IMG/VR virus record: IMGVR_UViG_3300035698_022389
Span: 1-64,000 of that record
DNA from: a virus
Strand: one strand, 5' to 3'
DNA: 64,000 nt
The notes below the pieces were generated by a model, which made no database searches, had not been told where the DNA came from, and worked only from the letters and a program-made list of their open reading frames with translations. The position numbers and the translations under genes are program-made. Below are positions 1,928-20,496 of the stretch, piece by piece. Every line of letters starts with the position of its first letter. Positions within the stretch are counted from its first letter, which is position 1.

Positions 1928-2260
1928 ATGTCCAAGATGCGTGGCCGAAAGGCTCCTTCCCCCGAGGAACAGGAGCTAAATCAGCAGTTAGTGATTGCTG
2001 AGCAGGCATTGTTACGGGCAGCTACAGCCTGTCAGAGAATTGGTAAACAAGATCGGATTGTGGGCAGAAGAGCTTTACAGGCTTCTCGGAATATACACGC
2101 TGCAATTAATTCTATTGGAGAGATAGGGAATATGGTTCCAAATATTGATTCTTCAGACCCTGATATGATGTCCGAAAAGCAGCGGATTGCTTTATTTAGG
2201 GAGATACGGAACGCCCGATTGGAAAAACATAAAAAAACTCGTCTTAGGAGATCTGAATAA
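1928..2260 (+). CDS. Hypothetical protein (110 aa)
   Basis: Tightly packed ORF; its stop overlaps the portal start (TAATG). Confidence 0.65.
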   Translation: MSKMRGRKAPSPEEQELNQQLVIAEQALLRAATACQRIGKQDRIVGRRALQASRNIHAAINSIGEIGNMVPNIDSSDPDMMSEKQRIALFREIRNARLEKHKKTRLRRSE

Positions 2261-5200
2261 TGGCAAGAAGAAAAAAACAACAACAAGATGCTGTTGAGGT
2301 TCGAAAAGTCCCTAATAAAAAAAAGGGAGCTCAAGCAGGTAAACCTGATAAGATTATGACTGGTGCTATGAGGATGAAAACAGCTTTTTCAATGGCTTCG
2401 GGGACGACCGTGGGAGCAGGGGGTAACTTTTACTCTCCTGAATTATCCACAGATTTCCTTGAACTGCCCCAGAGTATTGATGAGCAGCGGAATTTTTATC
2501 GTCATTTCTATAAGCATGAGCCATTTGTAGGCCAAGCTATTGATCTTCATACAGAACTCCCGCTTTCAAAGCTTCGGGTGAGTCTGCCTATAACTAAAGA
2601 TCGTCAAATGGCCGAGAAGGCTTTGAGATTTTGTGAACAATGGTCAAAGAAAGTTCGGCTTCTCCATCGACTCCTGGAAATTACACATGAATATCATCTT
2701 CTCGGTGAGGTGTTTATTTTCTGTGAGGACATTAACCCTAATATTCCTAGAGAAATTAGGGAAGAACCTGTTCGTGAGATTACGTCTGAGGGTAAATTAC
2801 TGGAGTCTTGGGTTCCTTATGATGATGCAAATGCTCGTGAAGTAGCTTGGTTGAAGAACAATTACAAAGGGTGGACTGCTATTAAGACTCTCCCACCAGA
2901 GCAGATTCAGATGGAATCCTTCCCGTTTACGGATGAGCATCTGTTTGAGTTGGTTCCTGATTCTAAATCCAAAGATGTTGTGAATAAAGCTCAACAGGGT
3001 GATATTAGAGCCGCTGGGATTGTTGATTCGATGTCCGCAGATATTGTGGGTGCTATCCTTGCAGGTGAGAACCTCCCTTTGAATACGGATCCTGATGCAG
3101 GGTCCTTCGTTTATTATCTGGCCAGAAAACGTAGTCAATATGAAGAACGTGGAAGTTCTATTCTTCAACGTTGCCTACTCCCAGGCACTCCTATATGGAT
3201 TAAACGGGATGGTATTGTTCAACAAGTTTCCGTCGAAAATGTAAATGAAAACACTGATACAATGCTGACACATAAAGGTCGTTTCAAACCCTGTAAAGCA
3301 GGATCACGTCCCGTAAATGAGGTTATAACAGTATTGGATATTGCGGGTATTACTGAAAATCTTAGTTTAACTTCTGATCATGAAGTTTTGAGGGTTAATG
3401 GGGATGGGACAGAAGACTGGGTTGAAGCAGGTAAATTACAACCTGGAGATATGGTTAGAGAAGGTCATATTGTTCCTGATGGTGATCCTATAAAGACTAT
3501 TAACTTGGTAGACTGGTGGCAGAACCATTTCTTAAGTTCAGTTAAACGGGGTAGACCTGATATGGGTTTGCCTGAAACATGTCGGGAGTTGGTTGTCCAT
3601 AAAGCTTATTCCAATGAGGAAGGGCTTACTGTAACGTTTCATCATGACAACGATAACAAAAACAGGGTTAAAGCCACCTCTGTACTGGAGAAGATACTTA
3701 CATGGGCTAAGAGCCTAGTTACACCTATTACGATGCCTCAAGCTGCCGTAGCGGTTGCTGCAGGGGTGTCTGAACGGGATGTACGTGTATATACCCCCCG
3801 TCTTCGGAAAGAAGGTATGCTGAGGGTTGAAACTAAATCTCTAGGTAGGGGGAAAGGACAATCCTCAACGTGGTATCCAGCAGATACTGATAAGCTACCT
3901 CCTGTTATAACAGAAATGGTTTCCCCCATTAGTGAAATTATTATTAATGAAGATTTCTGTTATTTACTGGGTACTTGGATGGGTGACGGTTGTGTGTGGA
4001 CTGAAACAGAGAGCTTGTTGAATGTTCATAGCATAGGATGGTCTTTACATGATAAAGATATAGCAGCCCATGTAAATAATCTGGCTGGTCGTTGTTTTAA
4101 AGGGTCTGATATAAAAAAAGGGTGTTTGGTTAGTAAAGTTGCAAAATCTAATGACATCCGTATTGAGGACCCTCTCTTAGCTCGCTGGTTCAAAGAAGAA
4201 TTTGGGCATACTGCCCAAGGAAAACATTTGCCAGAATGGGTTTTCCACCTGTCTGACAAACATATTATGGCTCTTTTGCAAGGTCTTTTGGATACTGATG
4301 GTTGGTTAGGTGTAGGTAAGGCATATCGAATTGAATTTGCTTTGGATAATAAGGTTTTGATAGATCAAATTCATCTGCTTTGTAACAGGGTTGGGATAAA
4401 ATCTAAGGTTGGTATTGATCATAAGAAAGCACGGTCATGGACACGTACTTGGGATACCAAGGATGGCACTCGTACAAAGACATATCATTATGAAGCTAAA
4501 GATTTTCCTAAATTATCATGTTCTCGGTCCGAAGATGTAAGACGTTGGGCAAAAGGAAGTATAAAAGGTTCTCGTGCAATTTGGGATAACAGGGGTGTTG
4601 ATAAACGTGGTGGCCCAAAAACCATAAATGGTTGGATGGTACATAAGATAAAATCTGTTTCACATGTTCTTTATAAAGGTCCTGTTTATTCGTTCAATGT
4701 GGAGGGAGATACTTCACACTTTACTTTAACTATCACCCATAACTGTATGAGAACACTAGTTTTTAGAGATAAAGTTAGACAGTCGATGACTAGCATAGCT
4801 TCTCGTCATATGACTCCTTATAGGCTCGTATGGGCTGAGGATATGAATGATGATCAGACAGAAGAATTGCGTGAGCAGGTAGACTTGGCTCTTCAAGATC
4901 CTGATTACTCTATCATTACTTCTTTCCAGGTCAATTGGGAGGAAATGGGAGCAGATCAGCGACTACCTGATTGGAGTTGGGTTTGGGATTTCACTGACCG
5001 TCAGCTATATGCTGGGTTGGGTGTAACCGAGGGTTTGTTGTCTGGTGAGAGTTCTTATGCTGGTGATAGATTGCATTTGGAAGTCATTAATACAAGATAT
5101 ATGTTGCTTCGAGAATTGCTTCAAGATTTGGTGGAAGAGTATTTCTTCAAGCCTATGTGCCGTCGGATGGGTTTTGTTGAAGAAGATCAGGATGGAAACT

Positions 5201-5532
5201 TGGAAGTAGTTGTTCCTCGGTTGTCATTCACTCGATTGGCACTTCGAGATAATGCTGATACGTTTGATGCTTTGTTCAATTTGTATCAGAAGGGTTCTTT
5301 GGACATTGATACTATCCTCGACCTTCTGAATATCGATCCCGTCACCACAAAAGAGAAACTCCTTCGTGATTTTGGAACTCTCAATGATGCTACCTTTAAT
5401 GAAGTGCTTCGAGGTGCTTATAGCCGTGTAGGTGAGGGATTAGTGGAGGGTTCCAACTTGACTGAGAAAGTTGCTTCTGGTCTAGGATTACAGTATACGA
5501 AACCCGTGGAAGAAGGTAGCGGTCGTTTCTAA
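2260..5532 (+). CDS. Portal protein with a cis-splicing intein
   Basis: Follows terminase. Portal-like segments PFVGQAIDLHTELP, 'LREQVDLALQDPD' and 'QLYAGLGVTEGLLSGE'. Removing the intein leaves about 566 aa. Confidence 0.82.
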   Translation: MARRKKQQQDAVEVRKVPNKKKGAQAGKPDKIMTGAMRMKTAFSMASGTTVGAGGNFYSPELSTDFLELPQSIDEQRNFYRHFYKHEPFVGQAIDLHTELPLSKLRVSLPITKDRQMAEKALRFCEQWSKKVRLLHRLLEITHEYHLLGEVFIFCEDINPNIPREIREEPVREITSEGKLLESWVPYDDANAREVAWLKNNYKGWTAIKTLPPEQIQMESFPFTDEHLFELVPDSKSKDVVNKAQQGDIRAAGIVDSMSADIVGAILAGENLPLNTDPDAGSFVYYLARKRSQYEERGSSILQRCLLPGTPIWIKRDGIVQQVSVENVNENTDTMLTHKGRFKPCKAGSRPVNEVITVLDIAGITENLSLTSDHEVLRVNGDGTEDWVEAGKLQPGDMVREGHIVPDGDPIKTINLVDWWQNHFLSSVKRGRPDMGLPETCRELVVHKAYSNEEGLTVTFHHDNDNKNRVKATSVLEKILTWAKSLVTPITMPQAAVAVAAGVSERDVRVYTPRLRKEGMLRVETKSLGRGKGQSSTWYPADTDKLPPVITEMVSPISEIIINEDFCYLLGTWMGDGCVWTETESLLNVHSIGWSLHDKDIAAHVNNLAGRCFKGSDIKKGCLVSKVAKSNDIRIEDPLLARWFKEEFGHTAQGKHLPEWVFHLSDKHIMALLQGLLDTDGWLGVGKAYRIEFALDNKVLIDQIHLLCNRVGIKSKVGIDHKKARSWTRTWDTKDGTRTKTYHYEAKDFPKLSCSRSEDVRRWAKGSIKGSRAIWDNRGVDKRGGPKTINGWMVHKIKSVSHVLYKGPVYSFNVEGDTSHFTLTITHNCMRTLVFRDKVRQSMTSIASRHMTPYRLVWAEDMNDDQTEELREQVDLALQDPDYSIITSFQVNWEEMGADQRLPDWSWVWDFTDRQLYAGLGVTEGLLSGESSYAGDRLHLEVINTRYMLLRELLQDLVEEYFFKPMCRRMGFVEEDQDGNLEVVVPRLSFTRLALRDNADTFDALFNLYQKGSLDIDTILDLLNIDPVTTKEKLLRDFGTLNDATFNEVLRGAYSRVGEGLVEGSNLTEKVASGLGLQYTKPVEEGSGRF
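3172..4743 (+). mobile_element. Portal intein (524 aa) with LAGLIDADG homing endonuclease
   Basis: Starts CLLPGT, has block B LTSDHEVL, LAGLIDADG helices YLLGTWMGDGC and LLQGLLDTDGW, block F VYSFNVEG, and ends THN followed by Cys(+1) at 4744. Confidence 0.93.
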
Positions 5533-5570: not shown

Positions 5571-6998
5571 ATGGAAGGGTTTGTGATGAATACACATCAG
5601 CAAAAACAGGCAAAGCAACTTGCATTCCGATGGATTCGGAAGACGGCAAGTGGGTGGGAAAAACGAGTATCCCACCTTACTGACAGGTATTTTTTGTTGA
5701 AGACGGGCAAGGAATTCCCTACGGGTGAGGCTTTGCAGAAGTACCTTGAGGAACATCCGAAAGCTGATAAACGCCGTCATTGGGTCACAGATGAAAAGGA
5801 AAACAAAAAAGTTGAAGAGGGTAGTAAATCTAACCCTGAGATCGGATACGTCCGGAAATGGGGGAAAGCCCGCGCTTCAAAATTAGAGTCCATGAGAACA
5901 GGTTCTTTTACCCCCACTCCAATTTCAGGAACTTTGGGAGCTAAATCAGTTAAAGGCATCCAAAAAAATGCAAAAAAACTTCTCCGAACCTATTCAGCTC
6001 ATCTTCCTGGTGATGATGTGGATAATATGCGGGATTTCATTGACGATCTAGGGGACACCCTGGATTCGGCCCTTTCCTCTGGGGATTTCAAAGGGGTTAA
6101 GGCATCTGCCATGGACAAGATTATGCATGATGCCATTGAGGATCTTGTGTTTCAAACACATGAATCCTACAAACGTCAGCTCGGTGATCATGGTATTCGA
6201 CATATCGTTGGGAACATTAAGACTCAAAATCAGGTTTATGATGCTTTGGATAAGGCAGGTAAGAAAATTTCTGCTGCCGATAGGCTCAAAGCCATGTTGA
6301 TAATGGTTAACCATGACCTTGGATACACAGCTGCCCCTGCTGCAACAGATCTTAAATATACAGGTAAACACAAGGAATATGGGTCAAAGATTTTCAAGAG
6401 TGAGCGGGGGGATAACTATCAAGATTTGTTTGGTGATGGTTTAGATGAGTTTGTCCATCTGATTGAGACCCATGATTCTGATGAGATTGATTGGGATAAA
6501 GATCCCGTTGGTAGTGGCATTCGAGTTGCCGATAATCTTAGCCTCTATGCTAAAGATAAACTTCCTGGGCTATTCCGTCTGGTTCCAGATGGCCTTGATG
6601 TATTAGAAGAATTGGGGAGAGCTGCCACGGCAAAACCCCCTGATGATGATGAAGTGGAGAGAATCAAAAAGTCTTTAAAAGAAAAGGTTCAAAATACAGG
6701 GCTTTCTAGTGCTTTAAAAGATGCACTTCTGAATGCTGCCCAAGAAGTCAGTAGGTTCACTCCTAGATTTACGTTAGGTATGCTCGGTGGCCATGTGGGT
6801 TCAATAAATTTTAAGGATGGTTCCTTGGTGGTGAAGGTGAAGAAGGATGCCTATGACACCCAGCTCCAGAAATTATTTGACATGGGGCAGTCCCAGTTTA
6901 ATAAATTAGCTAAGTCTTATGGGGTTGATAAAGTTACGGATAATAAGTTTGAGTTGTCTAAGAACGGCAAGTCTGTCCTGAAACTTAGTATTGGATAA
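5571..6998 (+). CDS. HD-domain metal-dependent phosphohydrolase-like protein (ATG at 5586 is a possible start)
   Basis: HD-superfamily spacing: DHGIRH, VNHDLGY, ETHD, VADNL. Confidence 0.7.
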   Translation: MEGFVMNTHQQKQAKQLAFRWIRKTASGWEKRVSHLTDRYFLLKTGKEFPTGEALQKYLEEHPKADKRRHWVTDEKENKKVEEGSKSNPEIGYVRKWGKARASKLESMRTGSFTPTPISGTLGAKSVKGIQKNAKKLLRTYSAHLPGDDVDNMRDFIDDLGDTLDSALSSGDFKGVKASAMDKIMHDAIEDLVFQTHESYKRQLGDHGIRHIVGNIKTQNQVYDALDKAGKKISAADRLKAMLIMVNHDLGYTAAPAATDLKYTGKHKEYGSKIFKSERGDNYQDLFGDGLDEFVHLIETHDSDEIDWDKDPVGSGIRVADNLSLYAKDKLPGLFRLVPDGLDVLEELGRAATAKPPDDDEVERIKKSLKEKVQNTGLSSALKDALLNAAQEVSRFTPRFTLGMLGGHVGSINFKDGSLVVKVKKDAYDTQLQKLFDMGQSQFNKLAKSYGVDKVTDNKFELSKNGKSVLKLSIG

Positions 6999-9900
6999 AT
7001 TAATGAAACCTGAAAAATACTTCGGTGCTGCATATGGCAAAAAAACAGGAGATGGGACGGGAGTAGGTCTTTTTATCCCCCTCCCCGAACCTTTGGCTTC
7101 TCAATTCCCTAGTTTGGGGGATGCGGATACGAGTCCTTCCCATTGTACATTTCTGTATATTGGAGCTGTCAATAAAGACCAAGAAAAATTGTTCCTGGAT
7201 ACTTTGACTCAGGTGTTCACCGGTTGGGATAAGTCGGTGATGGGTGTTCTGGATTACCTTGATTATTTCATCCACCCTGAAAAAGAACGCCATGTTGCAG
7301 TAATGAAAATCCGTTTCAACCAACGGATGGATGAAATTCGTTGGAAACTTCGAGATGCCCTGATTGAAGTTGGTATCCATGTAGATGATGGTTTTCCTTT
7401 GGTTTATCAGCCTCATGCAACACTTGAATACATTGGCTGCCTTGACACTCCTTATGTGGGCACAGTTCCTTCAGGGAGTTGGACTTTCAATAGCATTGAG
7501 GTTTGGGGACTTCCAAAGCTCCATGTGATTCCATTCCAGCAAACACCTACAGACAGAATGGCTTCAAAATACATAGCGTCATTAAAACACCAGACATCTA
7601 TCGAATTGATGAAGTTCTTGGCAAATGCTGTGAACAAACTTGGTGCAGGGAGGCATGTCTATGTAGTTGGGGGAGCCGTCAGGAATTTCATTATATCAGA
7701 GCCTATAAAAGATATAGATATCGTTGTGGATTCCATTGGGGCAGGGAAAGATTCAGCTTGGTTGGCCAAGAAACTTCAGAAAGCCATTCCCACCCGAACC
7801 AACTTGGTGACAAATCAGTATGGTGTTGCCATAATAACAATCAAAGATGACTGGTTCATCGGGGATTCCAATTTGAAGGGTGAAACTATCGAGATAGCTA
7901 ATGCCCGTAAAGAGTCTTACGGGGGGGTAGATGGCAAAGGGTACAAACCTCACATGGTGGAACCCTCGACTATTCAGGAAGATGTAGTTAGAAGAGAGTT
8001 TACTTTTAACACATTATTGTGGCAGATGTCTGAATTAGCCAACGGTCCTGAGAAGGCTGAGATTCTAGATATGACGGGATGTGGCAGGAAAGATTTGGAT
8101 GAAGGGATGATGCGTTGTCCCAGTAATCCAAATAAGACGTTCACAGAGGATCCATCACGAATGATTCGTGCCATAAAATTCCTTATTAAGTATGGGTTCA
8201 AGATAGCTCCTGATGTGAAAGCTGCTATCAAACGGAATGCTCCGAAGTTGAAGAATATTCCATCTGGGCATTTGAGTAACATGATTGTCAATTTGTTTTT
8301 TGAGCCTGGATATGGTTCTAAGGCTTTAGTTGAGATGAAAAAATTAGGACTTTTGGATGTAGTTCAGGAGATTGCGGTTAAAGATAAGTCATTTAGGGAA
8401 GCTCTGGCAAATTGGTCTGATCGAAGTGCCAAGATAGATTTCCTGTTTGAACTGATGGACTATAATATGCCTACAGGACGTAGGTTGAAGTTCCTTAGTA
8501 AAGCTGATTTAGTGAAGCTCAGGGATATTACAGCTCCAATGTCTTCCGATGAAACCGAGAGACTCATTGCTCCGTTGGAGCAGCCTGGTAAACTTGTGAA
8601 TATGAAAGCTCTGATTTCAGAGTTTGGGTTGAAGGGTCAGGAAATCAGGCAATTGACGGATGTTATCCGTCAGGCCATCTTAAAAGATCCTCGGATGGTT
8701 ATGACCCCAGCTCGTCTGGAGAGGGAAACCCGTAAACATATGGGGAAGACAGCTAAGGTTTATACAGAGGCCGATCTGTTTCCAGCTCTACGAAAGTTTG
8801 AGGATGCCGTTGAACAACTGGATAAATATTATGCCATAATCCATGTCTATGTGGAATCTTTAGGTGATAAGGGTGGTGAAAAACAGTTGCAATTGGCTTT
8901 TGAGAGGGGTGTCCGACGGTATTGGGAATATGTTATTAATGCAGGTGCCGAATTGTCTCGGATAGTTCTTGACCAGAAAGCTATCCCTGCGGGGCAGGCT
9001 AAGAAAATTGAGATGGCAGCCCGATTGTTTATGTCTGCCCTGCGTTTCCCAAAGAAGTTTGACAATTGGATGAAAAAGAATACTAGGCATATCAAGTACC
9101 TAGAAGAAGCTGCTAAGAAATGGAAAGACAAAGAAGAAGGCGATGAGCTGTTTAAGATTGGACCTTTTGATGTTCATAATACTATAGGGGCATCTGATAA
9201 GGATCTTGAAGGAATCAAAACACTGGTTTCAAAAGGAATCTCTTTGGTCAAGAAAGCTAGTGGTGCTCTCACAGGTTACAAGAAGACTTTGTATGGTGAT
9301 GTTTTCGTCGTTGGTAAACTTCTGAAATCCCATACGATGGCTTGGTATGAGATAGGGGATGATTCTGTTTATATGAGGCTTATGAAAAAGGTTGATTATG
9401 ATGATCTTCAGTCCTTGCTTCATGAGTTAGCTCATCGGTATTGGAGAAAATTCTTATCCCATGGTGTAAAAACCCGCTGGCATGTTCATCACAATGCTGT
9501 TGGAGGATCAATGGCAGGTAAAGTTGATATGCCTGAAGTTGGGGACATTCTCCCATTTTCTGTCAATAAAACAAAAAAACCAAAAGTACTGGGGATTGAA
9601 TCTGGTGTTTATATTTTAGAAGCCCGTTCCGGTAATCCTTTAGCTGTGCAAAAGATGACTTTATACAAATGGATGCAGCAGGAACAGAAAACTGGAAAAT
9701 ATCCGACTAGATATGCAGCCACGGATGCAGAAGAACATTTCTGTGAAGCTATGGCTCTTTACGCTTTGGGGAAATTAGGTCCTGAGCATGTTAAGGCTTT
9801 AGAAGAATCTTTAACAGGGAAAGAGGATGAGCTTTCGTTCATTCAGAAAGATGTTGCTGCAATGACAGATCAAGCTATTGAGCGGGTAGCCAAAGGATTC

Positions 9901-12900
9901 AAGAAACGGGCTTCATATTTCAGAGCTGGTGACCCTATTTTCTTCGGTAAATACAAGAATAAAAAGGGCATAATCAAAGGTTTCGGGCAAAATTCAAAGA
10001 ATCAGTCTGTAACTGTTATCATCGAGCTTGACCCTAAAGGCAGAAAACAGGAGAAAGCAATCAGTTTGTACAACATCTGGCATCGGGACATTGAACGTCG
10101 TGCCTCTGTTGACCGCCTGGCTATCAAGTACGAAGCTCGTGTCAAAGAGCCTTGGAAGATGACTTTTAATGAATTCAGGAAATCTGTAAAAGTTCAGAGA
10201 GTTGAATGGAAAGCTGTCCAGACTTTCCAGGACTTCTTGAAGGCCAAACGGGTTAACCCATCAGATATTCCAACAGAAGCTGAGGAAGCAGATGCTATTG
10301 GTGGGTTGGTATTTAGGCGTCCTAATATGACAACTCAGCAAATAGGGCGTTTGAAGACATTAGTTCGTAAAAAATTGTATAAGGATAAATTATATAAGGA
10401 ATGGGGGACTACTGTTGATAGAGTTGAGTCCCGTTCAGATTTGGATTTAAGCAGGGCTGATGATAAAGCCTATTTGAGAGTTGAACATAAACGGGCAATT
10501 CGTAAAGCTCTCCATCATCGAAAACATGTCCCAGATAAAGTTTTGATTGAGTATCCTGAATTGACTGCTGTAGACAGGATTGCATCCAGGAGCTTAAAAG
10601 CTAAGGGTACTCATAACTTTTTACGGATAGAGAAACTTATGACAGATCTTCGTGAGGAATTACCACGAGGTTTTTATAGGAATACCCCTATAAAGGAAAG
10701 TCAAGTAAAAGATATTCAACGAAAAGCTCGTGCTTTGTATGATGCCCTTGTCTTTGATTTCGAGGGGACACGGGCTGCTTTCCTTTATAAAAAGAAAGCC
10801 CATCGTAAAATCGAGAATTTTCGTAAGTTCTTTTTAGCACTTACCAAAGTAACAGGTCCTGAAGAAATGATGGCATACCTCCAAAAATGGGGTGGTAAGA
10901 CTAAAGGGTACTTTGAAAAGTTTTGGGACTCCATGCGGTTTACTTTAGGTGTCATTCAAGCACTTGATGTGGAACGTATTGATTCTTTCTCAGTTGGTAA
11001 GTGGAATGTCTCATTATGGACATCTCCCCGTGCTGATTGGGATGATGGTAAGGTTGGTCGTTTGCAGTGGGTTTTGGACAGGGCTGATAAAATGACTACC
11101 TCTAAGGGGTTTGGGGGTGTGTCTTACGGTCGGGTAAATGCCTATCCCTCGGGTAATGTTCCAGTATCAGGGCATGGAAGTGGTTCAACCATGGCAATGT
11201 ATAACCCCTCAACTGATTTGGTCAGTTTGGGTGCAGGGAAAGATGTTAAGAGGACTCTCTTGGATTTAATCCATGAATTAGGTCATCGTTATTATTTCAA
11301 AAAAATGGGGTCACGGGGACGTGCCGCATGGGAGGAGTTTTTTGAAGCCTCTCAAGGTTCTCCCAATGTGGATAAGCTAATTGCCGATTGGGAAAGATAT
11401 GTTAAGAATGCAACTGGATGGGATGGTAAGAAATACGGTCGGTATCTGTTTCAGTATTACTCTTATTTGAAGAAAAAAGACCCTGAACAAACCATGTGGC
11501 TTGAAATGGTTGCAGATAAAATAGATATTAATGAGCCTTCCAATGCTTATGGTCCTAAAAAGGGGATTACCCCTGGCCTTGATCAGTTGATTGCACGTAA
11601 AGGGGAAGCTAATGTTTTCCTTCACCCTGTAACGGCTTACAGTGCTACAAGTCCATCGGAACTATTTGCTGAAACCTTCTCTCATGCAATCTTTTATGGG
11701 CCAAATACGATTCCCGAAATAGTCAGGGATGTGTTCAAGCGGGCAGCCCCTAAAGCAAAAATGGCCTCTGATAGGCAGATTAATCGCATTGCATCTAAGT
11801 TTCAGAAGAAAAAAGAAGTCCCTAAAGCAGATGGCAAAGGGACAACCACGGTCTATGAGTACAGTGAAGGTCAGATTCAGAATCGGAACAGGGACAAAGC
11901 CAAACGAATAGAGGCTCTTCGGGGGAAACTGGATAAACTCCATACGTCTATTAAGAAAGACCTGAAATCCAAAGATGAACAGACCTGGATGACTGCTCTG
12001 GCTATTGGGCTTATCAATGATACATTTGAGCGGGTTGGTAACTCAGGTTCAGCTAATGACGGCCATTTTGGTGTGACTGGCTGGCAGGCCAAGCATGTAA
12101 CTTTGGGGCCTGGAAAAGCTACTTTCAAATACGTCGGCAAATCAGGTGTGAGTCAGTCCAAGACAACCACCGATAATGGCCTTGTGAGTGCCCTGAAAGC
12201 AGCAATGGAGGGTAAGACGGGTTCTGACCCTATATTCAAGGCAGAGAGCTTCACAGTGGATTCAGGGAAGATTAACACCTATCTGAAGCCCTTTGACATC
12301 ACAGCTAAGGATGTCCGGGGTCTTCATGCTAACAGGCAAGTCCAGAAGGCTCTTAAATCCATCCGTTCTGCCGGTGGGAAATTACCAACGGATCCAAAGG
12401 AAAAAGAGAAGAAGTTGAAGGCTGAATTTCAGTCTGCCCTCGAACAGGCAGCAAAAGCTGTCGGTCATGAGGCTGCCACCTTGAAGAATCAGTATTTAGT
12501 TCCAGGATTGGAAGATAATTATCTGAAAGATGGGACTGTTAAAGAGAACTTGGCCAGACAGAAAAAGGCAACTAAAACCCACGGGGAAAGAGATGACGAG
12601 GAAACTGCTAAACTCGTAAAACCTCTCCCTAAGAAGAACCCTCCACGGTATGATCTTAGAAACGAACGGGTTAATGTGGATAAGGACAAGGATACAGGGG
12701 GCAATAAGGCTGATAATGATAAGGACATGAGCCTGAACTACAAGAGGGTTGCTATAGACCGTCTGGCTGACCGTTGGTTGAGACACGCTGTTGAGGCAAA
12801 GAAACCTGGGGATATCTGGAAAACGAACAAAGGTTATTCAGTTAAATTGGATGATGACACTATCCGACAGACGGACTCTGGGGCCAAGGCTAAAATTATA

Positions 12901-14586
12901 CTGGAGAAATTCCGTAGTGGGAAGAAACCCGAGGATGATCCGAGCGGGAAAAAGAAACCTCAAGAGGTACCTGGCAGTGTTGAGAAAGCTCTGATCAAAG
13001 TTGAGGAAGATAAAGCTCAAGCCAAAGTTGATGAAGCAGCTGCGAAGGCTGATGAAGTTCCTCAAGATGAAGAACCTGCTTCCAAGGAGGAAGCTATTTC
13101 AAAACAGCCTGAAATCTCGAAGTCAAAGAAACAGAAACGATTTGATGAGGTCGCTGCTGTTTATAATGGTTTTATTGTTGATATGGGGAAAGATAAACGG
13201 TTCAAATCCGTATTAAAAGAAATTAGTGATTTTGATAACCCACAGGAAGTTATGACAGCTTTCCAAACTCAAGTTACCGATATTAGGGCTGAGATAGATA
13301 AAGGAAACCTTTCTCCTGAAACCATTCAGGCTGCTTCAGATGCATTAGAAAACCCAGGTGGTGATGGCATGGCCAATGCCAAAATGGTTGGTCAGACTTT
13401 GGCATTGGCTATGATAGCCAAGAAATTAATAGCTAATCCTCTTTATAGAGGTGGTCAGTCTTCTGGTTTAGATGCTGAAGGTACGGTATCTGATTCCCGT
13501 GATCTAACAAAAAAAGCCAGGGAAACTGCAAATTATTACAGTTCCTTAACTCCGATTCTCCGACAGGAGGCTATTGCTGAAACTAAGAAGCTATTTACGG
13601 GGTTAGAGGGAGGTTCTACTCAGCGTCATGAATTGGATAAGTTAGCTGATGGTATTCATCATGCTGCTAGTGTTCAGGGAGATTACGATGATCCCCGAAG
13701 TGGTAATGCTTCTTTAAGGCCACCTCCAGGGCCAGGCCTTCGGAGTGTCTTGCAAGTTTTGGCCACTAAAGGTGAAGACCAGGATATTTTGGATATTATA
13801 GTAAATAGCTCAAAAGGTGGCCTGGGTTCAGATGATGCCAAGCTTAAAATCAAAAGTGCTTTGGACGATTTATCTGATGATGATTTGTATGAAGCTTGTG
13901 GTGGGGAAAATGGCCCAGATGCACTTACTATAGATTTGTTGCAGAATGGGGGTCTGTCTTCTAAGGAACTGGAATATGTTAAGGATATGTTAGTAGGTGG
14001 TTTGGTAGATAGTATTTCCTCTCATGATGAGATAACTGCCCGTATAACGCAGGGTGATAAAGTAATTCAACAGTTAGTAGACCTTGAAAAAACTCAAGAC
14101 CAAAAACCAGAAACTAAAACCCTAGGGGACTCTGAAAATTCAACCCTTCACGGGGACACAGAATATTGTTGGACATGTCCCCGTGAAGATGGAGCACCTT
14201 CTTCACAAGAACTGGTTAACAATATAGAAAATGGTGCCCGAAAGGAGACTGATGAGGAGCGGTTTAAGTTGGCTGAGTGTCTGAAAGAGGCTAAGAGTCC
14301 TGAGCGTAAGCAGAAGTGTCTCGATAAATTGAATAGGGTGCCCTTAGATAAATTAGCTAATGATAATGAGGATTTACGCCCAGAAGATCCTTGGCAGGAC
14401 GCATGTAATGTTTACCGTTTGAGCTTAGCCGAGGCTCGATTAAAGTTTTTTGAAGAAACTTTCGGTGAACTTCCTATAGATGACCCTTTTAAAGTCCAGA
14501 TTCAAACAGCAATCAAACTTTATGATGCTGAAGAGTTGGACAAAAGATACATCCGAGAGGGTGAGAAGTTAGGAAACTTATTTTAA
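6991..14586 (+). CDS. Giant multidomain 'polyvalent'-type protein: 2H phosphoesterase + CCA/poly(A)-polymerase-class nucleotidyltransferase + two HExxH metallopeptidase-like domains + type IB topoisomerase + acidic C-terminal region (ATG at 7003 is a possible start)
   Basis: HCT (7141) and HAT (7414); VGGAVRN, DIDI, RREFT, EDPSRMIRAIKF; LLHELAH (9421) with YAATDAEEHFCEA; LIHELGH (11272) with YSATSPSELFAETF; TopIB pentad ERVGN / GKSG / KDVR / GH-x8-Y. Confidence 0.85.
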   Translation: MDKLMKPEKYFGAAYGKKTGDGTGVGLFIPLPEPLASQFPSLGDADTSPSHCTFLYIGAVNKDQEKLFLDTLTQVFTGWDKSVMGVLDYLDYFIHPEKERHVAVMKIRFNQRMDEIRWKLRDALIEVGIHVDDGFPLVYQPHATLEYIGCLDTPYVGTVPSGSWTFNSIEVWGLPKLHVIPFQQTPTDRMASKYIASLKHQTSIELMKFLANAVNKLGAGRHVYVVGGAVRNFIISEPIKDIDIVVDSIGAGKDSAWLAKKLQKAIPTRTNLVTNQYGVAIITIKDDWFIGDSNLKGETIEIANARKESYGGVDGKGYKPHMVEPSTIQEDVVRREFTFNTLLWQMSELANGPEKAEILDMTGCGRKDLDEGMMRCPSNPNKTFTEDPSRMIRAIKFLIKYGFKIAPDVKAAIKRNAPKLKNIPSGHLSNMIVNLFFEPGYGSKALVEMKKLGLLDVVQEIAVKDKSFREALANWSDRSAKIDFLFELMDYNMPTGRRLKFLSKADLVKLRDITAPMSSDETERLIAPLEQPGKLVNMKALISEFGLKGQEIRQLTDVIRQAILKDPRMVMTPARLERETRKHMGKTAKVYTEADLFPALRKFEDAVEQLDKYYAIIHVYVESLGDKGGEKQLQLAFERGVRRYWEYVINAGAELSRIVLDQKAIPAGQAKKIEMAARLFMSALRFPKKFDNWMKKNTRHIKYLEEAAKKWKDKEEGDELFKIGPFDVHNTIGASDKDLEGIKTLVSKGISLVKKASGALTGYKKTLYGDVFVVGKLLKSHTMAWYEIGDDSVYMRLMKKVDYDDLQSLLHELAHRYWRKFLSHGVKTRWHVHHNAVGGSMAGKVDMPEVGDILPFSVNKTKKPKVLGIESGVYILEARSGNPLAVQKMTLYKWMQQEQKTGKYPTRYAATDAEEHFCEAMALYALGKLGPEHVKALEESLTGKEDELSFIQKDVAAMTDQAIERVAKGFKKRASYFRAGDPIFFGKYKNKKGIIKGFGQNSKNQSVTVIIELDPKGRKQEKAISLYNIWHRDIERRASVDRLAIKYEARVKEPWKMTFNEFRKSVKVQRVEWKAVQTFQDFLKAKRVNPSDIPTEAEEADAIGGLVFRRPNMTTQQIGRLKTLVRKKLYKDKLYKEWGTTVDRVESRSDLDLSRADDKAYLRVEHKRAIRKALHHRKHVPDKVLIEYPELTAVDRIASRSLKAKGTHNFLRIEKLMTDLREELPRGFYRNTPIKESQVKDIQRKARALYDALVFDFEGTRAAFLYKKKAHRKIENFRKFFLALTKVTGPEEMMAYLQKWGGKTKGYFEKFWDSMRFTLGVIQALDVERIDSFSVGKWNVSLWTSPRADWDDGKVGRLQWVLDRADKMTTSKGFGGVSYGRVNAYPSGNVPVSGHGSGSTMAMYNPSTDLVSLGAGKDVKRTLLDLIHELGHRYYFKKMGSRGRAAWEEFFEASQGSPNVDKLIADWERYVKNATGWDGKKYGRYLFQYYSYLKKKDPEQTMWLEMVADKIDINEPSNAYGPKKGITPGLDQLIARKGEANVFLHPVTAYSATSPSELFAETFSHAIFYGPNTIPEIVRDVFKRAAPKAKMASDRQINRIASKFQKKKEVPKADGKGTTTVYEYSEGQIQNRNRDKAKRIEALRGKLDKLHTSIKKDLKSKDEQTWMTALAIGLINDTFERVGNSGSANDGHFGVTGWQAKHVTLGPGKATFKYVGKSGVSQSKTTTDNGLVSALKAAMEGKTGSDPIFKAESFTVDSGKINTYLKPFDITAKDVRGLHANRQVQKALKSIRSAGGKLPTDPKEKEKKLKAEFQSALEQAAKAVGHEAATLKNQYLVPGLEDNYLKDGTVKENLARQKKATKTHGERDDEETAKLVKPLPKKNPPRYDLRNERVNVDKDKDTGGNKADNDKDMSLNYKRVAIDRLADRWLRHAVEAKKPGDIWKTNKGYSVKLDDDTIRQTDSGAKAKIILEKFRSGKKPEDDPSGKKKPQEVPGSVEKALIKVEEDKAQAKVDEAAAKADEVPQDEEPASKEEAISKQPEISKSKKQKRFDEVAAVYNGFIVDMGKDKRFKSVLKEISDFDNPQEVMTAFQTQVTDIRAEIDKGNLSPETIQAASDALENPGGDGMANAKMVGQTLALAMIAKKLIANPLYRGGQSSGLDAEGTVSDSRDLTKKARETANYYSSLTPILRQEAIAETKKLFTGLEGGSTQRHELDKLADGIHHAASVQGDYDDPRSGNASLRPPPGPGLRSVLQVLATKGEDQDILDIIVNSSKGGLGSDDAKLKIKSALDDLSDDDLYEACGGENGPDALTIDLLQNGGLSSKELEYVKDMLVGGLVDSISSHDEITARITQGDKVIQQLVDLEKTQDQKPETKTLGDSENSTLHGDTEYCWTCPREDGAPSSQELVNNIENGARKETDEERFKLAECLKEAKSPERKQKCLDKLNRVPLDKLANDNEDLRPEDPWQDACNVYRLSLAEARLKFFEETFGELPIDDPFKVQIQTAIKLYDAEELDKRYIREGEKLGNLF

Positions 14587-14691
14587 GAAGTAAACTTTTT
14601 CAATCTTTCATCTATATTTGAGGATACCTAAGTAGAGGGCATAGTGCGCCTCGTTTTAACTTGAGTATGGATGACCTTACAAGGAGGACAT

Positions 14692-15735
14692 ATGATGACT
14701 ATGACGTTGACTAAAAAGGGCGCACGGCAAGTGACTGAAACATTGGATAAGGTTGCAACCTTATTTCAGAATGACCACAAAACCCTTGGGATTGACCCAA
14801 AAATTGCCACTGATTTTGCTCACCGTTGTGATGTTCTTTCCGACCATGTTGAGAAACGTGCCGGAATTAACCGTACAGCTCTGACAGAATACGATCCTGT
14901 AAAAGAAACAGGATTCAATCCCGAAGAAATCGGGATTGAAAGATCGGGTCCCCTTGAAATGGTGGATTCAGATGAACCTTTCATGAACGGTGAGTTCACT
15001 CAGCAAGAGAATCGTGAACTTCGTTATGACCAGCAAAGTGGTAAACTCGGTCCAGACCGTACTACTCTTGCCCCACAAAACATTCCTGCAGGCAAACAAG
15101 CATTCGAGAAAATGGGTCGTGAAACTGTCATCAACAAGATGAGTATGATGAATGACACTCTGCATAATACAGCTTTGAAATTAGCTGCACTTAACCAAAG
15201 CATTTTGGCTGATGGTGTGACTAAGCTAGCCCAAGCTGTGATGGATACCCAAGTAGGCATCTCTCTCGGTATCGTGACTGCTGCTCAAAGCACTGAAATC
15301 ATGGATTCTTTCGAACTTGTGATGCCTCACATTGCTGCTGTAAGTCCTCAAACTCAGTCTAAAGTTGCTAGGATGATTGATCTTGCACTTCATATCGCAA
15401 AAAAAGCGGAAGAAGATGAAGATAATGACGACAAGAAGGACGACAAGAAGGACGACAAGAAGGACGACAAGAAGGACGACAAGAAGGACGACAAGAAGGA
15501 CGACAAGAAGGACGATAGTGGCAAATCTTTCTTTGAGAAGATGGAAGAAGCCAAGGCTAAGAAAAAGGCCAAGAAATCTGGTGAAGATGAAGATGACCTT
15601 GATGATGATGATGATGTAGAAGGCAAAAAGAAAGCAGCTAAGAAGTCTGATGAAGATTCAGAAGCTGAAGAGGACGATGATGATGTGGAAGGTAAAAAGA
15701 AAGCCTCTCACGGATTCATTCTGAACGCTGACTAA
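14692..15735 (+). CDS. Acidic/lysine-rich head scaffold-like or internal protein
   Basis: AAGGAGG RBS before ATG 14692; low-complexity D/E/K C-terminus; upstream of the prohead protease. Confidence 0.6.
   Translation: MMTMTLTKKGARQVTETLDKVATLFQNDHKTLGIDPKIATDFAHRCDVLSDHVEKRAGINRTALTEYDPVKETGFNPEEIGIERSGPLEMVDSDEPFMNGEFTQQENRELRYDQQSGKLGPDRTTLAPQNIPAGKQAFEKMGRETVINKMSMMNDTLHNTALKLAALNQSILADGVTKLAQAVMDTQVGISLGIVTAAQSTEIMDSFELVMPHIAAVSPQTQSKVARMIDLALHIAKKAEEDEDNDDKKDDKKDDKKDDKKDDKKDDKKDDKKDDSGKSFFEKMEEAKAKKKAKKSGEDEDDLDDDDDVEGKKKAAKKSDEDSEAEEDDDDVEGKKKASHGFILNAD
15427..15510 (+). repeat. Perfect 12-bp tandem repeat x7 (GACGACAAGAAG), encoding (DDKK)7
   Basis: Read directly from the sequence. 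Confidence 0.97.
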
Positions 15736-15756: not shown

Positions 15757-16407
15757 GTGGCAAAAACAGCAGCTATCGTCAATTATCAAATCCGGGGAGC
15801 ACAGTTCGCTGTTGGCGATGTGGTTTACCCGTTTTTGGACGGCAGTTCTGACTTGAACGGTCGAGTTGTAGCCGTATGGCCAGCCATTGGCATGGTAGAT
15901 GTGGAATGGCCTCACGGGTCGGAACGTCTTCCTGTTGAAGATATTCAGAAAATATCTCCTGATTCTTTCTATCAACCCCCTGAAGTGGCACCTGGTGAAA
16001 GTAGTGTACCCGGTGGTGCTGAAAGTGTCCCTGTATCAACGGGTCCTTCGGAAAAAGCTGTTATTCCTGAAGAGGAACAAGTAACTCGGTTGACTGCTGC
16101 TTTCATCAAAAAAGCTGTATGGCAGAATTCCCAATTACCTGAATTCCGACGAAGACTTGGCCTTTATTGGGCTTCTCGTGACCGACGGTATAGAGCCCGA
16201 AAAATTGAATTGGGTGACGGTGTTTATCATTGTCCAAAGTGTGCTGGGGTTGAATTACGGAAAGCCATCTATAAACGACGTGCAGGTGAAAGCTTGCATT
16301 TATTAGGTTGCCCAAATTGTCTGTTCCTTATCAAGAAATCTGACATTATAGGTGACCCAACTTATACTGAGTTTGACATTACACCCAATCGGAAACGGAG
16401 GTTGTAA
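15757..16407 (+). CDS. Hypothetical protein with C-terminal zinc ribbon
   Basis: GTG start after AAGGAG; CPKC...GCPNC; stop overlaps the next ATG. Confidence 0.7.
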   Translation: MAKTAAIVNYQIRGAQFAVGDVVYPFLDGSSDLNGRVVAVWPAIGMVDVEWPHGSERLPVEDIQKISPDSFYQPPEVAPGESSVPGGAESVPVSTGPSEKAVIPEEEQVTRLTAAFIKKAVWQNSQLPEFRRRLGLYWASRDRRYRARKIELGDGVYHCPKCAGVELRKAIYKRRAGESLHLLGCPNCLFLIKKSDIIGDPTYTEFDITPNRKRRL

Positions 16408-18023
16408 TGGCATTCATGAAGTATGCAACAGCTACCGTTGTTCAACCACATGTATCGGCCAATGTTTGGAGTAATATTCGGACGGCAGGGGATGTGGCCA
16501 GGTCTGGTGGAAACTTGGACAAGAATCTTATTGTTCGGGCTTCCGACTTGTTTGAGCAGGACTTTAAACCGAGTGAGTACCTCTTAACTCATGCTACTAT
16601 TATTGCTTCAGTTGACACATTTGCTCCAGTAGGATCAAAGGTTGGTTCTCAACTGGTGGATGGCTTCCAGGTCAATCGTAAGTACCCTGACTTTAGAATC
16701 ACAGCAACCACTGATAAATTTATCAACAATAATAGTGATGCCTGGTCACGAGATGTCCTCATGAAGTCCTATCAGACTTTCGTGGGGGGTCATAATTTCG
16801 TGGAGCATATTCAGGTGGAGGAGTTATCCCGGGGACGAATCATTGATGCCGTGTCTCGTGATATTGGTGATTCCATCTATGTTGACATCCTTATTGCTAC
16901 AGATAGAAAACACACAGACCTGATTCAAGCAATTGAAAATGGGAAAATGTCAACCTTATCGATGGGTTGTTCTGTCGACGGGACTATTTGTAGTAAGTGT
17001 GGGCATTGGGCAGCTGATGAAACCGAAATGTGCCCACATATCAAATACGAGAAGGGGAATACATTCTTTGATAACCAGGGGCGTCAGTCACGGGTAGCCG
17101 AACTTTGTGGGCATGGTACAATAGACCCACATGGTGGCGTTCATTTCGTTGAAGCCTCTTGGGTAGAGCAACCTGCATTTACTGGGGCTGTTTTACGGAA
17201 TGTGTTGGAGCCTACTCCTATTACAACTGCTAAAGTACAAGAAGTTTTGGCTTCAGTACCACCTCAATGGTCGGAGACTGACTATTTGAAGGTTGCTGGC
17301 TTCATGCCCCTCGTTGAAGAAGTGCTCGACACCAAAGTAATTGATAATGTTGGGCAAATCCGTCATGACGGGGCTTTAGTGGGGGCCATTGGCAAAACTC
17401 AACGTGCTGCCATTTATGGTTCCGCAGACCCCTTCCTGGCAGGTTGGGACGATGAGGGTGTTGAAGAGGGGGCTGAAGAGGGGGCTGAAGAGGGGGCTGA
17501 AGAGGTCAGTGATACACCTCCAACTGGAGAGCCTGCTAAGAGTCCTTTAGAGGATGCTGAAGAAGATCTTGAAAAACATTTAATGAACCGAGTAGTTCAA
17601 AGAATGAAAGACAAGATGAAGGATAAAGTTGTGGATGATGCTATTGGTGGGGAATCCTCAATGGCTCCAAATGACACCCTTATTAAAGAAGGCTCTGCTG
17701 GTAGGATGTACAAAGCAGCTTTGAATACGATTGTTTGGAAAACAGCAAGTGATGCTGATCTGGTGAATTCCTTAGCTGAGTATCATCAGAATATAGGTAT
17801 TGACATTCCTGTGGACATCTACAGGGCGTCATTAGTAGTAGGGTACCATAAGAAATATAGTTCGGTTGATTCGTTCTGGGATGCTTGCTGCCGAGTTCTA
17901 GGACGTGTGCCGAATCATTATGAGGCTAAAACAATTTTACGAATTTCCAAATTGTTGACCCAGAGAAAGTCTTTGGGCTGCAATTCTTCTCACTCAGGCA
18001 GTCGCTATAAGGAGGATCAGTAA
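16407..18023 (+). CDS. Prohead maturation protease with a Cys/His insert
   Basis: HK97/assemblin-like order of motifs: NNNSDAW, FVEH (His), GRIIDA, LSMGC (Ser), FVEASWVEQPAFTGA. Insert CSKC...CPH...C. Located before scaffold and MCP. (EEGA)3 repeat at 17463-17498. Confidence 0.8.
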   Translation: MAFMKYATATVVQPHVSANVWSNIRTAGDVARSGGNLDKNLIVRASDLFEQDFKPSEYLLTHATIIASVDTFAPVGSKVGSQLVDGFQVNRKYPDFRITATTDKFINNNSDAWSRDVLMKSYQTFVGGHNFVEHIQVEELSRGRIIDAVSRDIGDSIYVDILIATDRKHTDLIQAIENGKMSTLSMGCSVDGTICSKCGHWAADETEMCPHIKYEKGNTFFDNQGRQSRVAELCGHGTIDPHGGVHFVEASWVEQPAFTGAVLRNVLEPTPITTAKVQEVLASVPPQWSETDYLKVAGFMPLVEEVLDTKVIDNVGQIRHDGALVGAIGKTQRAAIYGSADPFLAGWDDEGVEEGAEEGAEEGAEEVSDTPPTGEPAKSPLEDAEEDLEKHLMNRVVQRMKDKMKDKVVDDAIGGESSMAPNDTLIKEGSAGRMYKAALNTIVWKTASDADLVNSLAEYHQNIGIDIPVDIYRASLVVGYHKKYSSVDSFWDACCRVLGRVPNHYEAKTILRISKLLTQRKSLGCNSSHSGSRYKEDQ

Positions 18024-20486: not shown

Positions 20487-20496
20487 GGAGGTACTC

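Follow-up and report, generated by a model that had tools for sequence, protein, structure and literature searches.

The viral window analysed here, a whole stretch of 64,000 nt, contains a gene for a 2,531-aa protein in which similar short strings recur (Table 1). Are these strings a portable element selected as a peptide, and what could such an element do on the modules of a large phage protein?

The genes for the portal (phrog_16240), the 2,531-aa protein, the head protease (phrog_18299) and the major head protein (phrog_2522) followed one another in this order, which places the giant gene among virion or late genes of a phage. The order of portal, polyvalent protein and head protease was identical in 12 related loci. 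The giant protein consisted of 2H-like, CCA nucleotidyltransferase, two zincin-like, small beta-barrel and topoisomerase IB (TopoIB) modules; Pfam assigned PolyA_pol/CCA to aa 223-458 and Topoisom_I to aa 1630-1833. Several unrelated effector domains were likewise present in its 96 giant homologs, with sets shuffled among relatives and varying in SOD, RNA ligase, PARP, GNAT, HAD, HAD_SAK_1 and ART-PolyVal. ART-PolyVal was found in homologs P0012 and P0090 and in an ORF of locus L006, and was absent from the window protein. Across 60 homologs of zincin-like module 1, H178, E179 and H182 were invariant and E282 and E286 nearly invariant; 775 relatives of this module were detected at E ≤ 0.001. 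The two zincin-like modules aligned with each other (hhalign probability 98.5%, E 3e-15), and fold comparison of these HExxH modules gave weak matches (E ~0.04), all to zinc metallopeptidases. The 354-aa protein may be an internal head protein or an anchor protein.

Table 1. Features of the window. Nucleotide positions refer to the window; residues are those of the 2,531-aa protein.
Feature	Nucleotides	Strand	Residues	Context
475-aa ORF	5571..6998	+		overlaps start of polyvalent protein; N-terminal AKQLAFRWI (nt 5613), then KTAS
Polyvalent (multi-enzyme) protein, 2,531 aa	6991..14586	+		ORF between portal and head-protease genes
Tag 1, TDRMASKY	7549..7572	+	187-194	between 2H-like module and CCA-type nucleotidyltransferase
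Zincin-like HExxH module 1	8890..9819	+	634-943	AlphaFold pLDDT >90
Tag 2, IERVAKGF	9877..9900	+	963-970	between zincin-like module 1 and small beta-barrel
KRAS, candidate protease cut site	9904..9915	+	972-975	directly after tag 2
RRAS, candidate protease cut site	10096..10107	+	1036-1039	directly before tag 3
Tag 3, VDRLAIKY	10108..10131	+	1040-1047	after small beta-barrel
Tag 4, VDRIASRS	10570..10593	+	1194-1201	weak copy without aromatic residue; before zincin-like module 2
Zincin-like HExxH module 2	10885..11754	+	1299-1588	paralog of module 1 (hhalign)
KMAS, candidate protease cut site	11758..11769	+	1590-1593	4 residues before tag 5
Tag 5, INRIASKF	11779..11802	+	1597-1604	directly before TopoIB module
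Tag 6, IDRLADRW	12754..12777	+	1922-1929	end of TopoIB block; KRVA directly before
354-aa protein with acidic tail	14671..15735	+		homologous to C-terminal ends of other polyvalent proteins
Prohead protease, 538 aa	16407..18023	+		phrog_18299 match
Acidic, repetitive scaffold-like protein, 509 aa	18023..19552	+		KRAS at aa 98 and KSAG at aa 471 of this protein

The sequence-only reading had described six strings of the pattern (I/V/T)-x-R-(L/I/V/M)-A-x-x-(F/Y/W), each at a domain junction. All six were present at the claimed nucleotide positions. Five fit the pattern; VDRIASRS did not. Five copies also lay at module borders, but the copy at aa 1194 was weak in this respect as well, with a motif-HMM score of -0.3 bits and few homologs spanning the region. 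The borders were defined by BLAST homology blocks in the family, and Pfam domains and the AlphaFold model agreed with them. Blocks started at aa 181-200 (29 blocks, tag 1), 961-980 (22 blocks, tag 2) and 1581-1620 (72 blocks, tag 5), and ended at aa 1021-1060 (28 blocks, tag 3) and 1921-1960 (31 blocks, tag 6). The closest relative kept R-[ML]-A-S-[KR]-Y at tag 1 while the surrounding linker diverged, and had lost the aromatic residue of tag 3. Tag 2 was conserved in homolog P0003, and tag 6 was the counterpart of the family's LSLNYKRVAARWL element. In the AlphaFold model, tags 2 and 3 formed low-confidence helices between well-folded modules: tag 2 lay within helix 314-340 (pLDDT 53-65; flanking modules >90 and 70-79), and the helix of tag 3 had a pLDDT <50. 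Three of the six tags exceeded the 95th percentile of helical hydrophobic moment for the 2,531-aa protein.

Motif frequency was compared with chance and proved far higher in both the window protein and its homologs. The original pattern occurred 5 times in the 2,531-aa protein (0.03 expected; none of 5000 shuffles reached 5) and 43 times in 95 giant homologs (3.1 expected). The core R[VIL]A.[RK][YFW] had 128 copies in these homologs against 2.4 expected; shuffles, reversed sequences (2) and 480 permutations of the residue classes (median 2) all gave ~2. Ala- and Arg-rich helices are common, and 42 of 149 tag contexts in the family count came from a single conserved tag-TopoIB joint, that of tag 5, which recurs in 42 homologs and is also seen at the N-terminus of free TopoIB proteins. 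The motif could on that account be due to chance or composition, or be a first or last helix inherited with individual domains. However, the sequences flanking the tags fell into 41 downstream and 49 upstream clusters, indicating that the tag is not part of any single domain, and an independent set of 137 further zincin-like module representatives contained 56 tags against 1.6 expected (13 N-terminal and 8 C-terminal). The shuffle, reversal, permutation, cluster and independent-set controls refute the chance and inheritance explanation, to which we assign almost no probability.

The family consensus was A/V/I-x-R-V/L/I-A-A/S-R/K-Y/W/F-L/V, and conservation followed amino-acid classes (V/L/I, R/K, Y/W/F). 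Shuffling of modules is extensive, and the tags coincide exactly with the points where homology stops, as would be seen if the motif were a DNA-level recombination linker promoting shuffling, with the peptide as a by-product. However, the conserved Arg and Ala were encoded by differing codons among the six copies, which share no nucleotide repeat; this indicates selection at the peptide level and, together with the tracking of amino-acid classes, makes a DNA-level linker very improbable. The residue preceding Arg was D, E or N in all six tags, a class uncommon at this position family-wide, and this fits co-adaptation to one reader. Core counts, flank clusters, codons and the AlphaFold model bear out a portable element under peptide-level selection: the tag is a portable basic amphipathic helix of ~10-14 residues, its helicity being predicted. 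No published description of the motif was found in the literature.

Similar strings had also been claimed for five separate ORFs of this genome. The strings exist, at nt 5613, 16081, 25950, 26843 and 35548 rather than at the quoted ORF starts, but they are near-misses at chance level, and none fits the pattern. The exact pattern had no match outside the polyvalent protein in the window (0.55 expected), and loosening it to admit these strings gave 11 matches against 5.7 ± 2.4. Their motif-HMM scores (0.7-1.6 bits) were no better than those of shuffled sequence. AKQLAFRWI in the 475-aa ORF, the best match outside the polyvalent protein (1.6 bits), may be a degenerate tag.

Outside the window, tags were found on separate proteins. 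Forty of 218 tags lay within 30 residues of a protein end (10.9 expected; p 1e-12). Stand-alone homologs of the TopoIB, CCA enzyme, zincin-like, GNAT and HAD modules carried the tag at the extreme N- or C-terminus; individually tagged genes of the kind proposed as ancestors of the modules therefore exist. Locus L012 encodes the polyvalent protein as separate pieces in consecutive genes, and there is a tag at the end of both the zincin-like piece and the GNAT piece. Some fusion joints carry two tags in tandem. When a complete 436-kb relative was searched with the back-translated pattern, 23 matches were found on the coding strand and 1 on the other strand (5 and 3 in controls). These lay in genes throughout the genome, often at a terminus, including those of a second TopoIB protein, an HAD_SAK_1 protein and a WLM peptidase. 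As had been suggested, the 25-aa LRKHLVPLLK tag is a parallel system in this phage clade: the related genomes that carry the helix tag have it too, and it marks homologs of a module that the helix tag also marks.

The (K/R)-x-A sites described near the tags were also recovered: three of the four non-tag [KR].AS sites of the polyvalent protein lay within 10 residues of a tag, and RMAS of tag 1 and RIAS of tag 4 double as such sites. Family-wide, [KR].AS was enriched ~9-fold at offsets -9 to -4 from the tag and ~6-fold at +4 to +8; the sites enriched beside tags have the form (K/R)-x-A-S/G. Within the window, the scaffold-like protein and the protease each contained one [KR].AS, that of the protease being K-T-A-S-D at aa 445 (nt 17739-17750). 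[KR]-x-A-S-[SDT] was present at the aligned protease position in 10 of 12 homologs. Over-representation in the scaffold and in the protease itself, as expected of a cut-site code, was seen in the homologs, with 30 [KR].AS sites in 7 scaffold homologs (2.8 expected, ~10-fold) and 22 in 12 protease homologs (5.8 expected). Because they cluster by the tags and are enriched in the scaffold, and one of them is conserved in the protease, the (K/R)-x-A-S sites are probably cut sites of the head protease.

The tag itself might then serve protease recognition and nothing else: the prohead protease or the embedded zincin-like modules would cut it as R-V-A↓A/S-R-Y, and terminal copies would be gene-fission leftovers or short propeptides. 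Its core, R-x-A-[AS], fits the scaffold-enriched (K/R)-x-A-S consensus, its six contiguous conserved positions resemble viral polyprotein cut sites, both zincin-like modules are followed by a tag, and passages of Iyer et al. 2017 (PMC5512222) predict metallopeptidase processing of polyvalent proteins. However, conserved tags lie 2-19 residues from the N-terminus or 3-14 from the C-terminus in dozens of unrelated free-standing proteins, so that cutting there would free merely a tiny peptide. The R/K-aromatic-L half of the tag has no counterpart in the scaffold sites and evidently carries other information. Position +3 of the tag is Ala in 38 of 99 cases and Ser in 16, whereas scaffold sites favour Ser, and tags are predicted to be helical rather than extended. 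We consider this explanation unlikely. A separate cargo-side cut site accompanied 2 of 30 N-terminal and 4 of 24 C-terminal tags; removal of terminal tags is thus not supported.

An address label for capsid loading appears most likely, because related phages place the helix on the ends of many separate enzymes. We put at about even the chance that the tag and the sites form a code resembling the capsid-targeting sequence (CTS) of phage T4: a helix would give the address for loading, and cut sites would separate the modules. In such a code, the tag would mark effector modules of an uncultured huge-phage clade, whether encoded alone (tag at the terminus) or fused (tag at the joint). The partner of the helix would be part of the prohead during assembly, our guess being the acidic scaffold, and enzymes would enter the capsid ready-made, to be delivered together with the DNA. 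The prohead protease would cut the (K/R)-x-A-S sites beside many internal tags and inside R-x-A-S-type tags, dividing the 2,531-aa protein after loading roughly at aa 191, 974, 1038, 1198, 1592 and 1601. Loading, the identity of the reader and cleavage are what we infer here. A broader version, in which the clade uses a two-part code of a position-independent RVAxRY-type loading tag and (K/R)-x-A-S trimming, with the 25-aa tag as a second, orthogonal label, is given somewhat less than an even chance.

Alternatively, the helix could be a docking element with no link to the capsid. Once made or injected, enzymes both free and fused would assemble on one hub, which might be a phage-made compartment, a complex for RNA repair or a target in the host. 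The tagged cargo is mainly enzymes that repair or modify nucleic acids, tagged genes are scattered throughout the 436-kb genome, and two different tags in one genome could mean two destinations. However, a hub candidate was not found, the sites that accompany the tags are over-represented in scaffold and protease, and the richest carriers are polyvalent proteins encoded between portal and head protease, a position also counted in favour of loading. Docking therefore seems quite improbable. Counted against loading were the absence of tags from the head proteins themselves and from the module border at ~aa 590-640 of the 2,531-aa protein; the tags of the window genome, which are degenerate relative to the family consensus and confined to one protein; the lack of the strict tag in 29 of 95 giant homologs and of strict-pattern enrichment in the related lineage G002; and the location of several tagged genes of the 436-kb relative far from the head module.

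For uncultured phages, the proteins packaged in the capsid and injected before genes are expressed are hard to find, although the way a phage copes with host defences depends largely on them. Should the tag prove to be a loading label, it would provide a sequence-only list of capsid cargo for a large huge-phage clade, here tRNA/RNA repair enzymes, topoisomerase IB, peptidases and many unknown proteins. Polyvalent proteins would then arise as individually tagged genes fuse and split, and the tag, working at either end or internally, could also be used to bring foreign proteins into capsids. The cut-site reading yields exact predicted cleavage positions for the 2,531-aa protein. Under the two-part code, sequence alone would suffice to list all the enzymes that an uncultured phage packages and injects.

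Polyvalent proteins of phages and conjugative elements are described by Iyer, Burroughs, Anand, de Souza and Aravind 2017 (PMC5512222) as single polypeptides that combine from two to fifteen effector domains unrelated to one another, among them hallmark domains such as the zincin-like MPTase and ART-PolyVal, and that travel in the virion to be delivered along with the DNA; embedded zincin-like modules are proposed there to release domains. The word 'linker' is absent from the text of PMC5512222, and its passages on cleavage and processing contain no cut-site motif. The protein studied here is similarly large, has many unrelated effector domains and embedded zincin-like modules, is encoded among virion genes, and has homologs with ART-PolyVal, 2H and GNAT; it differs in that the HExxH modules of the window had no match to Pfam MPTase models.

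Herpesvirus assemblin and related prohead proteases cut at Ala↓Ser sites located both in the scaffold and within their own sequence. The candidate sites described here share the small-residue P1/P1' pair (Ala-Ser) and the location in scaffold and protease, but the basic P3 residue is specific to the huge-phage clade, and the protease was recognised by a PHROG match. Encapsulin cargo-loading peptides and bacterial microcompartment encapsulation peptides are terminal or inter-domain helices that load unrelated enzymes into a shell, and encapsulin shells have the HK97 fold in common with phage capsids. These peptides have no sequence similarity to the tag, the shells are non-viral, and shell binding has been demonstrated for them. 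The T4 CTS, carried by internal proteins IPI-III and Alt and removed by the gp21 prohead protease, is strictly N-terminal, comprises ~10 residues and ends in an L/I-x-E cut site; a CTS of this type is needed, and suffices, to bring a protein into the prohead, and both loading and cutting have been demonstrated. Its sequence is unrelated to that of the new tag, which departs from the N-terminal, ~10-residue form in being N-terminal, C-terminal or internal, sometimes with several copies per protein. Here, (K/R)-x-A-S is the candidate for cutting, and no conserved Glu appeared in a profile covering the first 14 positions downstream of the tag. What the two systems would share is a short peptide common to unrelated, hypervariable, injected proteins, with a role in directing them to the prohead that is proposed for the new tag and a coupling to head-protease cutting that is putative for it.

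All six strings that the sequence-only reading had picked out in the 2,531-aa polyprotein (TDRMASKY, IERVAKGF, VDRLAIKY, VDRIASRS, INRIASKF and IDRLADRW, at aa 187, 963, 1040, 1194, 1597 and 1922) were present at the nucleotide positions claimed. The proposed pattern (I/V/T)-x-R-(L/I/V/M)-A-x-x-(F/Y/W) occurred five times in the polyprotein vs. 0.03 expected, a count not attained in any of 5000 shuffles; VDRIASRS falls outside the pattern. The core R-[VIL]-A-x-[RK]-[YFW] had 128 copies in 95 relatives vs. 2.4 expected, whereas reversed sequences gave 2 and 480 residue-class permutations a median of 2. The consensus from 99 non-redundant copies was A/S, A/V/I/S/T, x, R, V/L/I, A, A/S, R/K, Y/W/F, L/V. 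The sequences flanking the tag fell into 41 BLAST clusters downstream and 49 upstream, indicating that it belongs to no single domain. The probability that the motif reflects chance or is part of a domain is negligible in view of these counts.

The codons of the conserved residues differed among the six window copies, indicating selection on the peptide. This difference ruled out a DNA repeat or recombination signal, and a linker acting in recombination at the DNA level is very improbable. Internal translation starts ahead of the tags were also considered and rejected; three tags had a Met ahead of them, but the DNA showed no visible ribosome-binding site. The closest relative (66% identity) kept tags 187 and 963 as conserved islands in diverged linkers and had partly eroded versions of tags 1040 and 1922. 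The residue before Arg was D, E or N in 6 of 6 window tags, which is uncommon at that position family-wide, and two related genomes (G003 and G004) used the form A-x-RVAAR[WY]L. Such genome-specific dialects would fit co-adaptation to one reader. In the G002 lineage (locus L008, protein P0059), Ala or Glu replaced Arg/Lys at +4 (RVAQAY, RLAAEW, RVASAY).

The strings were also claimed to lie at domain junctions. We set module borders independently of the tags, from the start and stop points of BLAST homology with the 95 relatives. Homology blocks started at aa 181-200 (29 blocks), 961-980 (22) and 1581-1620 (72) and ended at aa 1021-1060 (28) and 1921-1960 (31), placing tags 187, 963, 1040, 1597 and 1922 at module borders. 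The claim thus stood for five strings; around tag 1194, homolog coverage was too thin to place a border. The module border near aa 590-640 carried no tag. Besides the Pfam domains listed in the table, the polyprotein contains a 2H-like N-terminal module, two paralogous HExxH modules, and a small beta-barrel after the first of these. A sequence search of the zincin-like module against PDB gave no real match, and Foldseek gave weak zincin matches and nothing else. AlphaFold modelling of aa 634-1050 (mean pLDDT 86) placed tags 963 and 1040 in helices between the zincin-like module (pLDDT >90) and the beta-barrel (70-79); pLDDT was 53-65 for the tag 963 helix and <50 for the tag 1040 helix.

Genes around the polyprotein and Pfam domains within it
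Feature	Position	Size	Remark
Terminase fragment	3-1673
Portal	2260-5532	1090 aa
ORF	5571-6998	475 aa	between portal and polyprotein
Giant ORF (polyprotein)	6991-14586	2,531 aa
PolyA_pol/CCA	aa 223-458		Pfam
Topoisom_I	aa 1630-1833		Pfam
ORF	14671-15735	354 aa	after polyprotein, before protease
ORF		216 aa	after polyprotein, before protease
Prohead protease	16407-18023
Scaffold-like protein	18023-19552		acidic, repetitive
Major head protein	20446-21369		phrog_2522

Shorter homologs often had the tag at their start or end. Free TopoIB proteins had the N-terminus M-x(4-8)-RVAA[RK][YF], and CCA enzymes had the C-terminus ...RVASRYL-x(3-8). Of the 218 tags in the 335 proteins collected, 40 were within 30 residues of a protein end vs. 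10.9 expected (p 1e-12). Locus L012 encodes the polyvalent protein as a series of consecutive genes, in which the zincin-like and GNAT pieces both end with the tag. A search of the zincin-like module against 1.84 billion representative proteins revealed 775 relatives; 137 new relatives among the matches listed had 56 tags vs. 1.6 expected, 13 of them N-terminal and 8 C-terminal. Tandem tag pairs were present at three joints, as expected if a C-tagged gene fuses to an N-tagged gene. These joints and the terminally tagged free-standing homologs support the earlier suggestion that the modules descended from individually tagged genes.

Whole related records were scanned with a DNA pattern back-translated from the tag. 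The complete 436-kb genome G003 had 23 coding-strand matches and 1 opposite-strand match (controls, 5 and 3), and the 100-kb fragment G004 had 12 and 0, respectively; in the G002 lineage, the strict pattern was not enriched genome-wide. Matches beyond the polyvalent gene were scattered over the genome and included a second TopoIB protein, a HAD_SAK_1 protein (C-terminal tag) and a WLM-type peptidase. Many other tagged genes outside the polyvalent gene encode proteins without assigned function. In all these genes taken together, the tag was often 5-24 residues from a terminus.

The claim that similar strings occur in separate ORFs of the window did not hold. Outside the polyprotein the exact pattern was found 0 times vs. 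0.55 expected, and the quoted strings were near-misses. When the pattern was loosened to include them, the other ORFs gave 11 matches vs. 5.7 ± 2.4; the quoted strings had motif-HMM scores of 0.7-1.6 bits, and shuffled sequence did as well. The best-scoring string, at the N-terminus of ORF 5571-6998, adjoins a KTAS site and may be a decayed tag. The sole other strict core in the 132-kb record is KKRVADKF at aa 3698 of a 3,926-aa ORF past the window (77666-89446); one such match is within chance.

The window polyprotein had seven [KR].AS sites vs. 1.8 expected. Three were tag cores, and three of the four others (KRAS 972, RRAS 1036 and KMAS 1590) were within 10 residues of a tag, in agreement with the (K/R)-x-A sites noted earlier near the tags. 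Family-wide, [KR].A[SGA] was enriched ~9-fold at offsets -9 to -4 and ~6-fold at +4 to +8 from the tag. Seven scaffold homologs (the window protein 18023-19552 and those of loci L002, L005-L008 and L012) had 30 [KR].AS sites vs. 2.8 expected; 30 of their 99 [KR].A strings were followed by Ser, vs. a Ser composition of 6.5%. Twelve protease homologs had 22 sites vs. 5.8 expected, and 10 of the 12 kept one of them, [KR]-x-A-S-[SDT] in the C-terminal part (window aa 445, nt 17739-17750), at one aligned position. The classic substrates of prohead proteases are scaffolds and the protease itself, which makes (K/R)-x-A-S, cut between Ala and Ser, the probable consensus for cutting by this clade's prohead protease. 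The tag could be purely a cut site, as the three tag cores would allow; however, the R/K-aromatic-L half of the tag is missing from the scaffold sites and therefore holds additional information, and we consider this reading unlikely. Trimming of terminal tags at a separate adjacent site was not supported: just 2 of 30 N-terminal tags and 4 of 24 C-terminal ones had a cargo-side site.

The 25-aa LRKHLVPLLK tag (window 36008-36097 and copies) had been proposed as a parallel system. It was present in 1-7 copies in each of the five related records searched (G001-G005) and on homologs of the same modules, including the zincin-like one: N-terminal in P0209 and P0229, near the C-terminus in P0295 and internal in P0090. 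The two tags thus occur together in the clade, and one cargo type can carry either. The first helix of the LRKHLVPLLK tag (I-S-K-L-A-S-D-Y) is similar to the form that the RVA tag takes in this genome, and the two tags may be related.

CheckV completeness of the 132,879-bp source record, of which the window is the first 64 kb, was only 25%, indicating that it originates from a huge phage. Nearly all window genes are on the + strand. A megablast search of GenBank phages with the polyprotein DNA gave no match, and tblastn matched uncultured huge phages and ordinary CCA enzymes of cultured phages, and nothing else. ORFs 5571, 14671, 15757, 18023, 24537, 25602, 26066 and 35536 had no Pfam or PHROGs match, and neither did most tagged ORFs of relatives. 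The 354-aa protein shares homology with the C-termini of the polyvalent homologs P0096, P0069, P0084, P0086, P0081 and P0060; in the phages of these six homologs, a predicted cargo protein is fused to an acidic-tailed candidate head protein of the 354-aa type. The major head protein had no tag or obvious propeptide. Its true start is probably an internal Met near aa 18, without a long propeptide, and a Gly/Ala-rich 232-aa ORF without known relatives (19788-20486) overlaps its start from upstream. The window portal ORF corresponds to the 566-aa portal of relatives plus a ~517-aa insertion (aa 307-823), which looks like an intein, ending in ...THN followed by Cys. The 1,353-aa protease homolog of L012 (14725-18786) shares a segment with this insertion (23% identity over 326 residues, E 1e-7) that may be a related intein.

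We propose, with about even confidence, that the tag is an address label for prohead loading and that neighbouring sites cut the modules apart. The conserved helix would load tagged enzymes into the prohead, and the (K/R)-x-A-S sites beside it would let the modules be separated. Such a label would most simply explain why one helix is conserved at the N- or C-terminus of unrelated enzymes as well as at module joints. The gene position between portal and protease is part of the case for prohead loading, as against a docking helix for a non-capsid hub, which we regard as quite improbable. That the acidic scaffold might read the tag is a guess, suggested by the charges of the two, basic in the tag and very acidic in the scaffold.

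The family comprises at least 96 giant proteins, on contigs up to 528 kb, with strongly shuffled domain sets (CCA enzyme, TopoIB, 2H, SOD, RNA ligase, PARP, GNAT, HAD_SAK_1, ART-PolyVal, inteins), and corresponds to what Iyer et al. 2017 (PMC5512222) called polyvalent proteins. Polyvalent proteins were described, and their processing by metallopeptidase predicted, by Iyer et al. 2017 and 2021 (PMC5512222, PMC7824862); term searches of these two papers found no linker or tag motif, and none of six tag strings turned up in a full-text literature search. The proposed tag differs from the T4 capsid targeting sequence in its peptide, its free positioning and its cut site; by analogy, the two would have in common the logic of a loading address combined with cutting. 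A capsid-targeting peptide with protease sites is a known principle, which would operate here, every functional step being predicted, with a different peptide.
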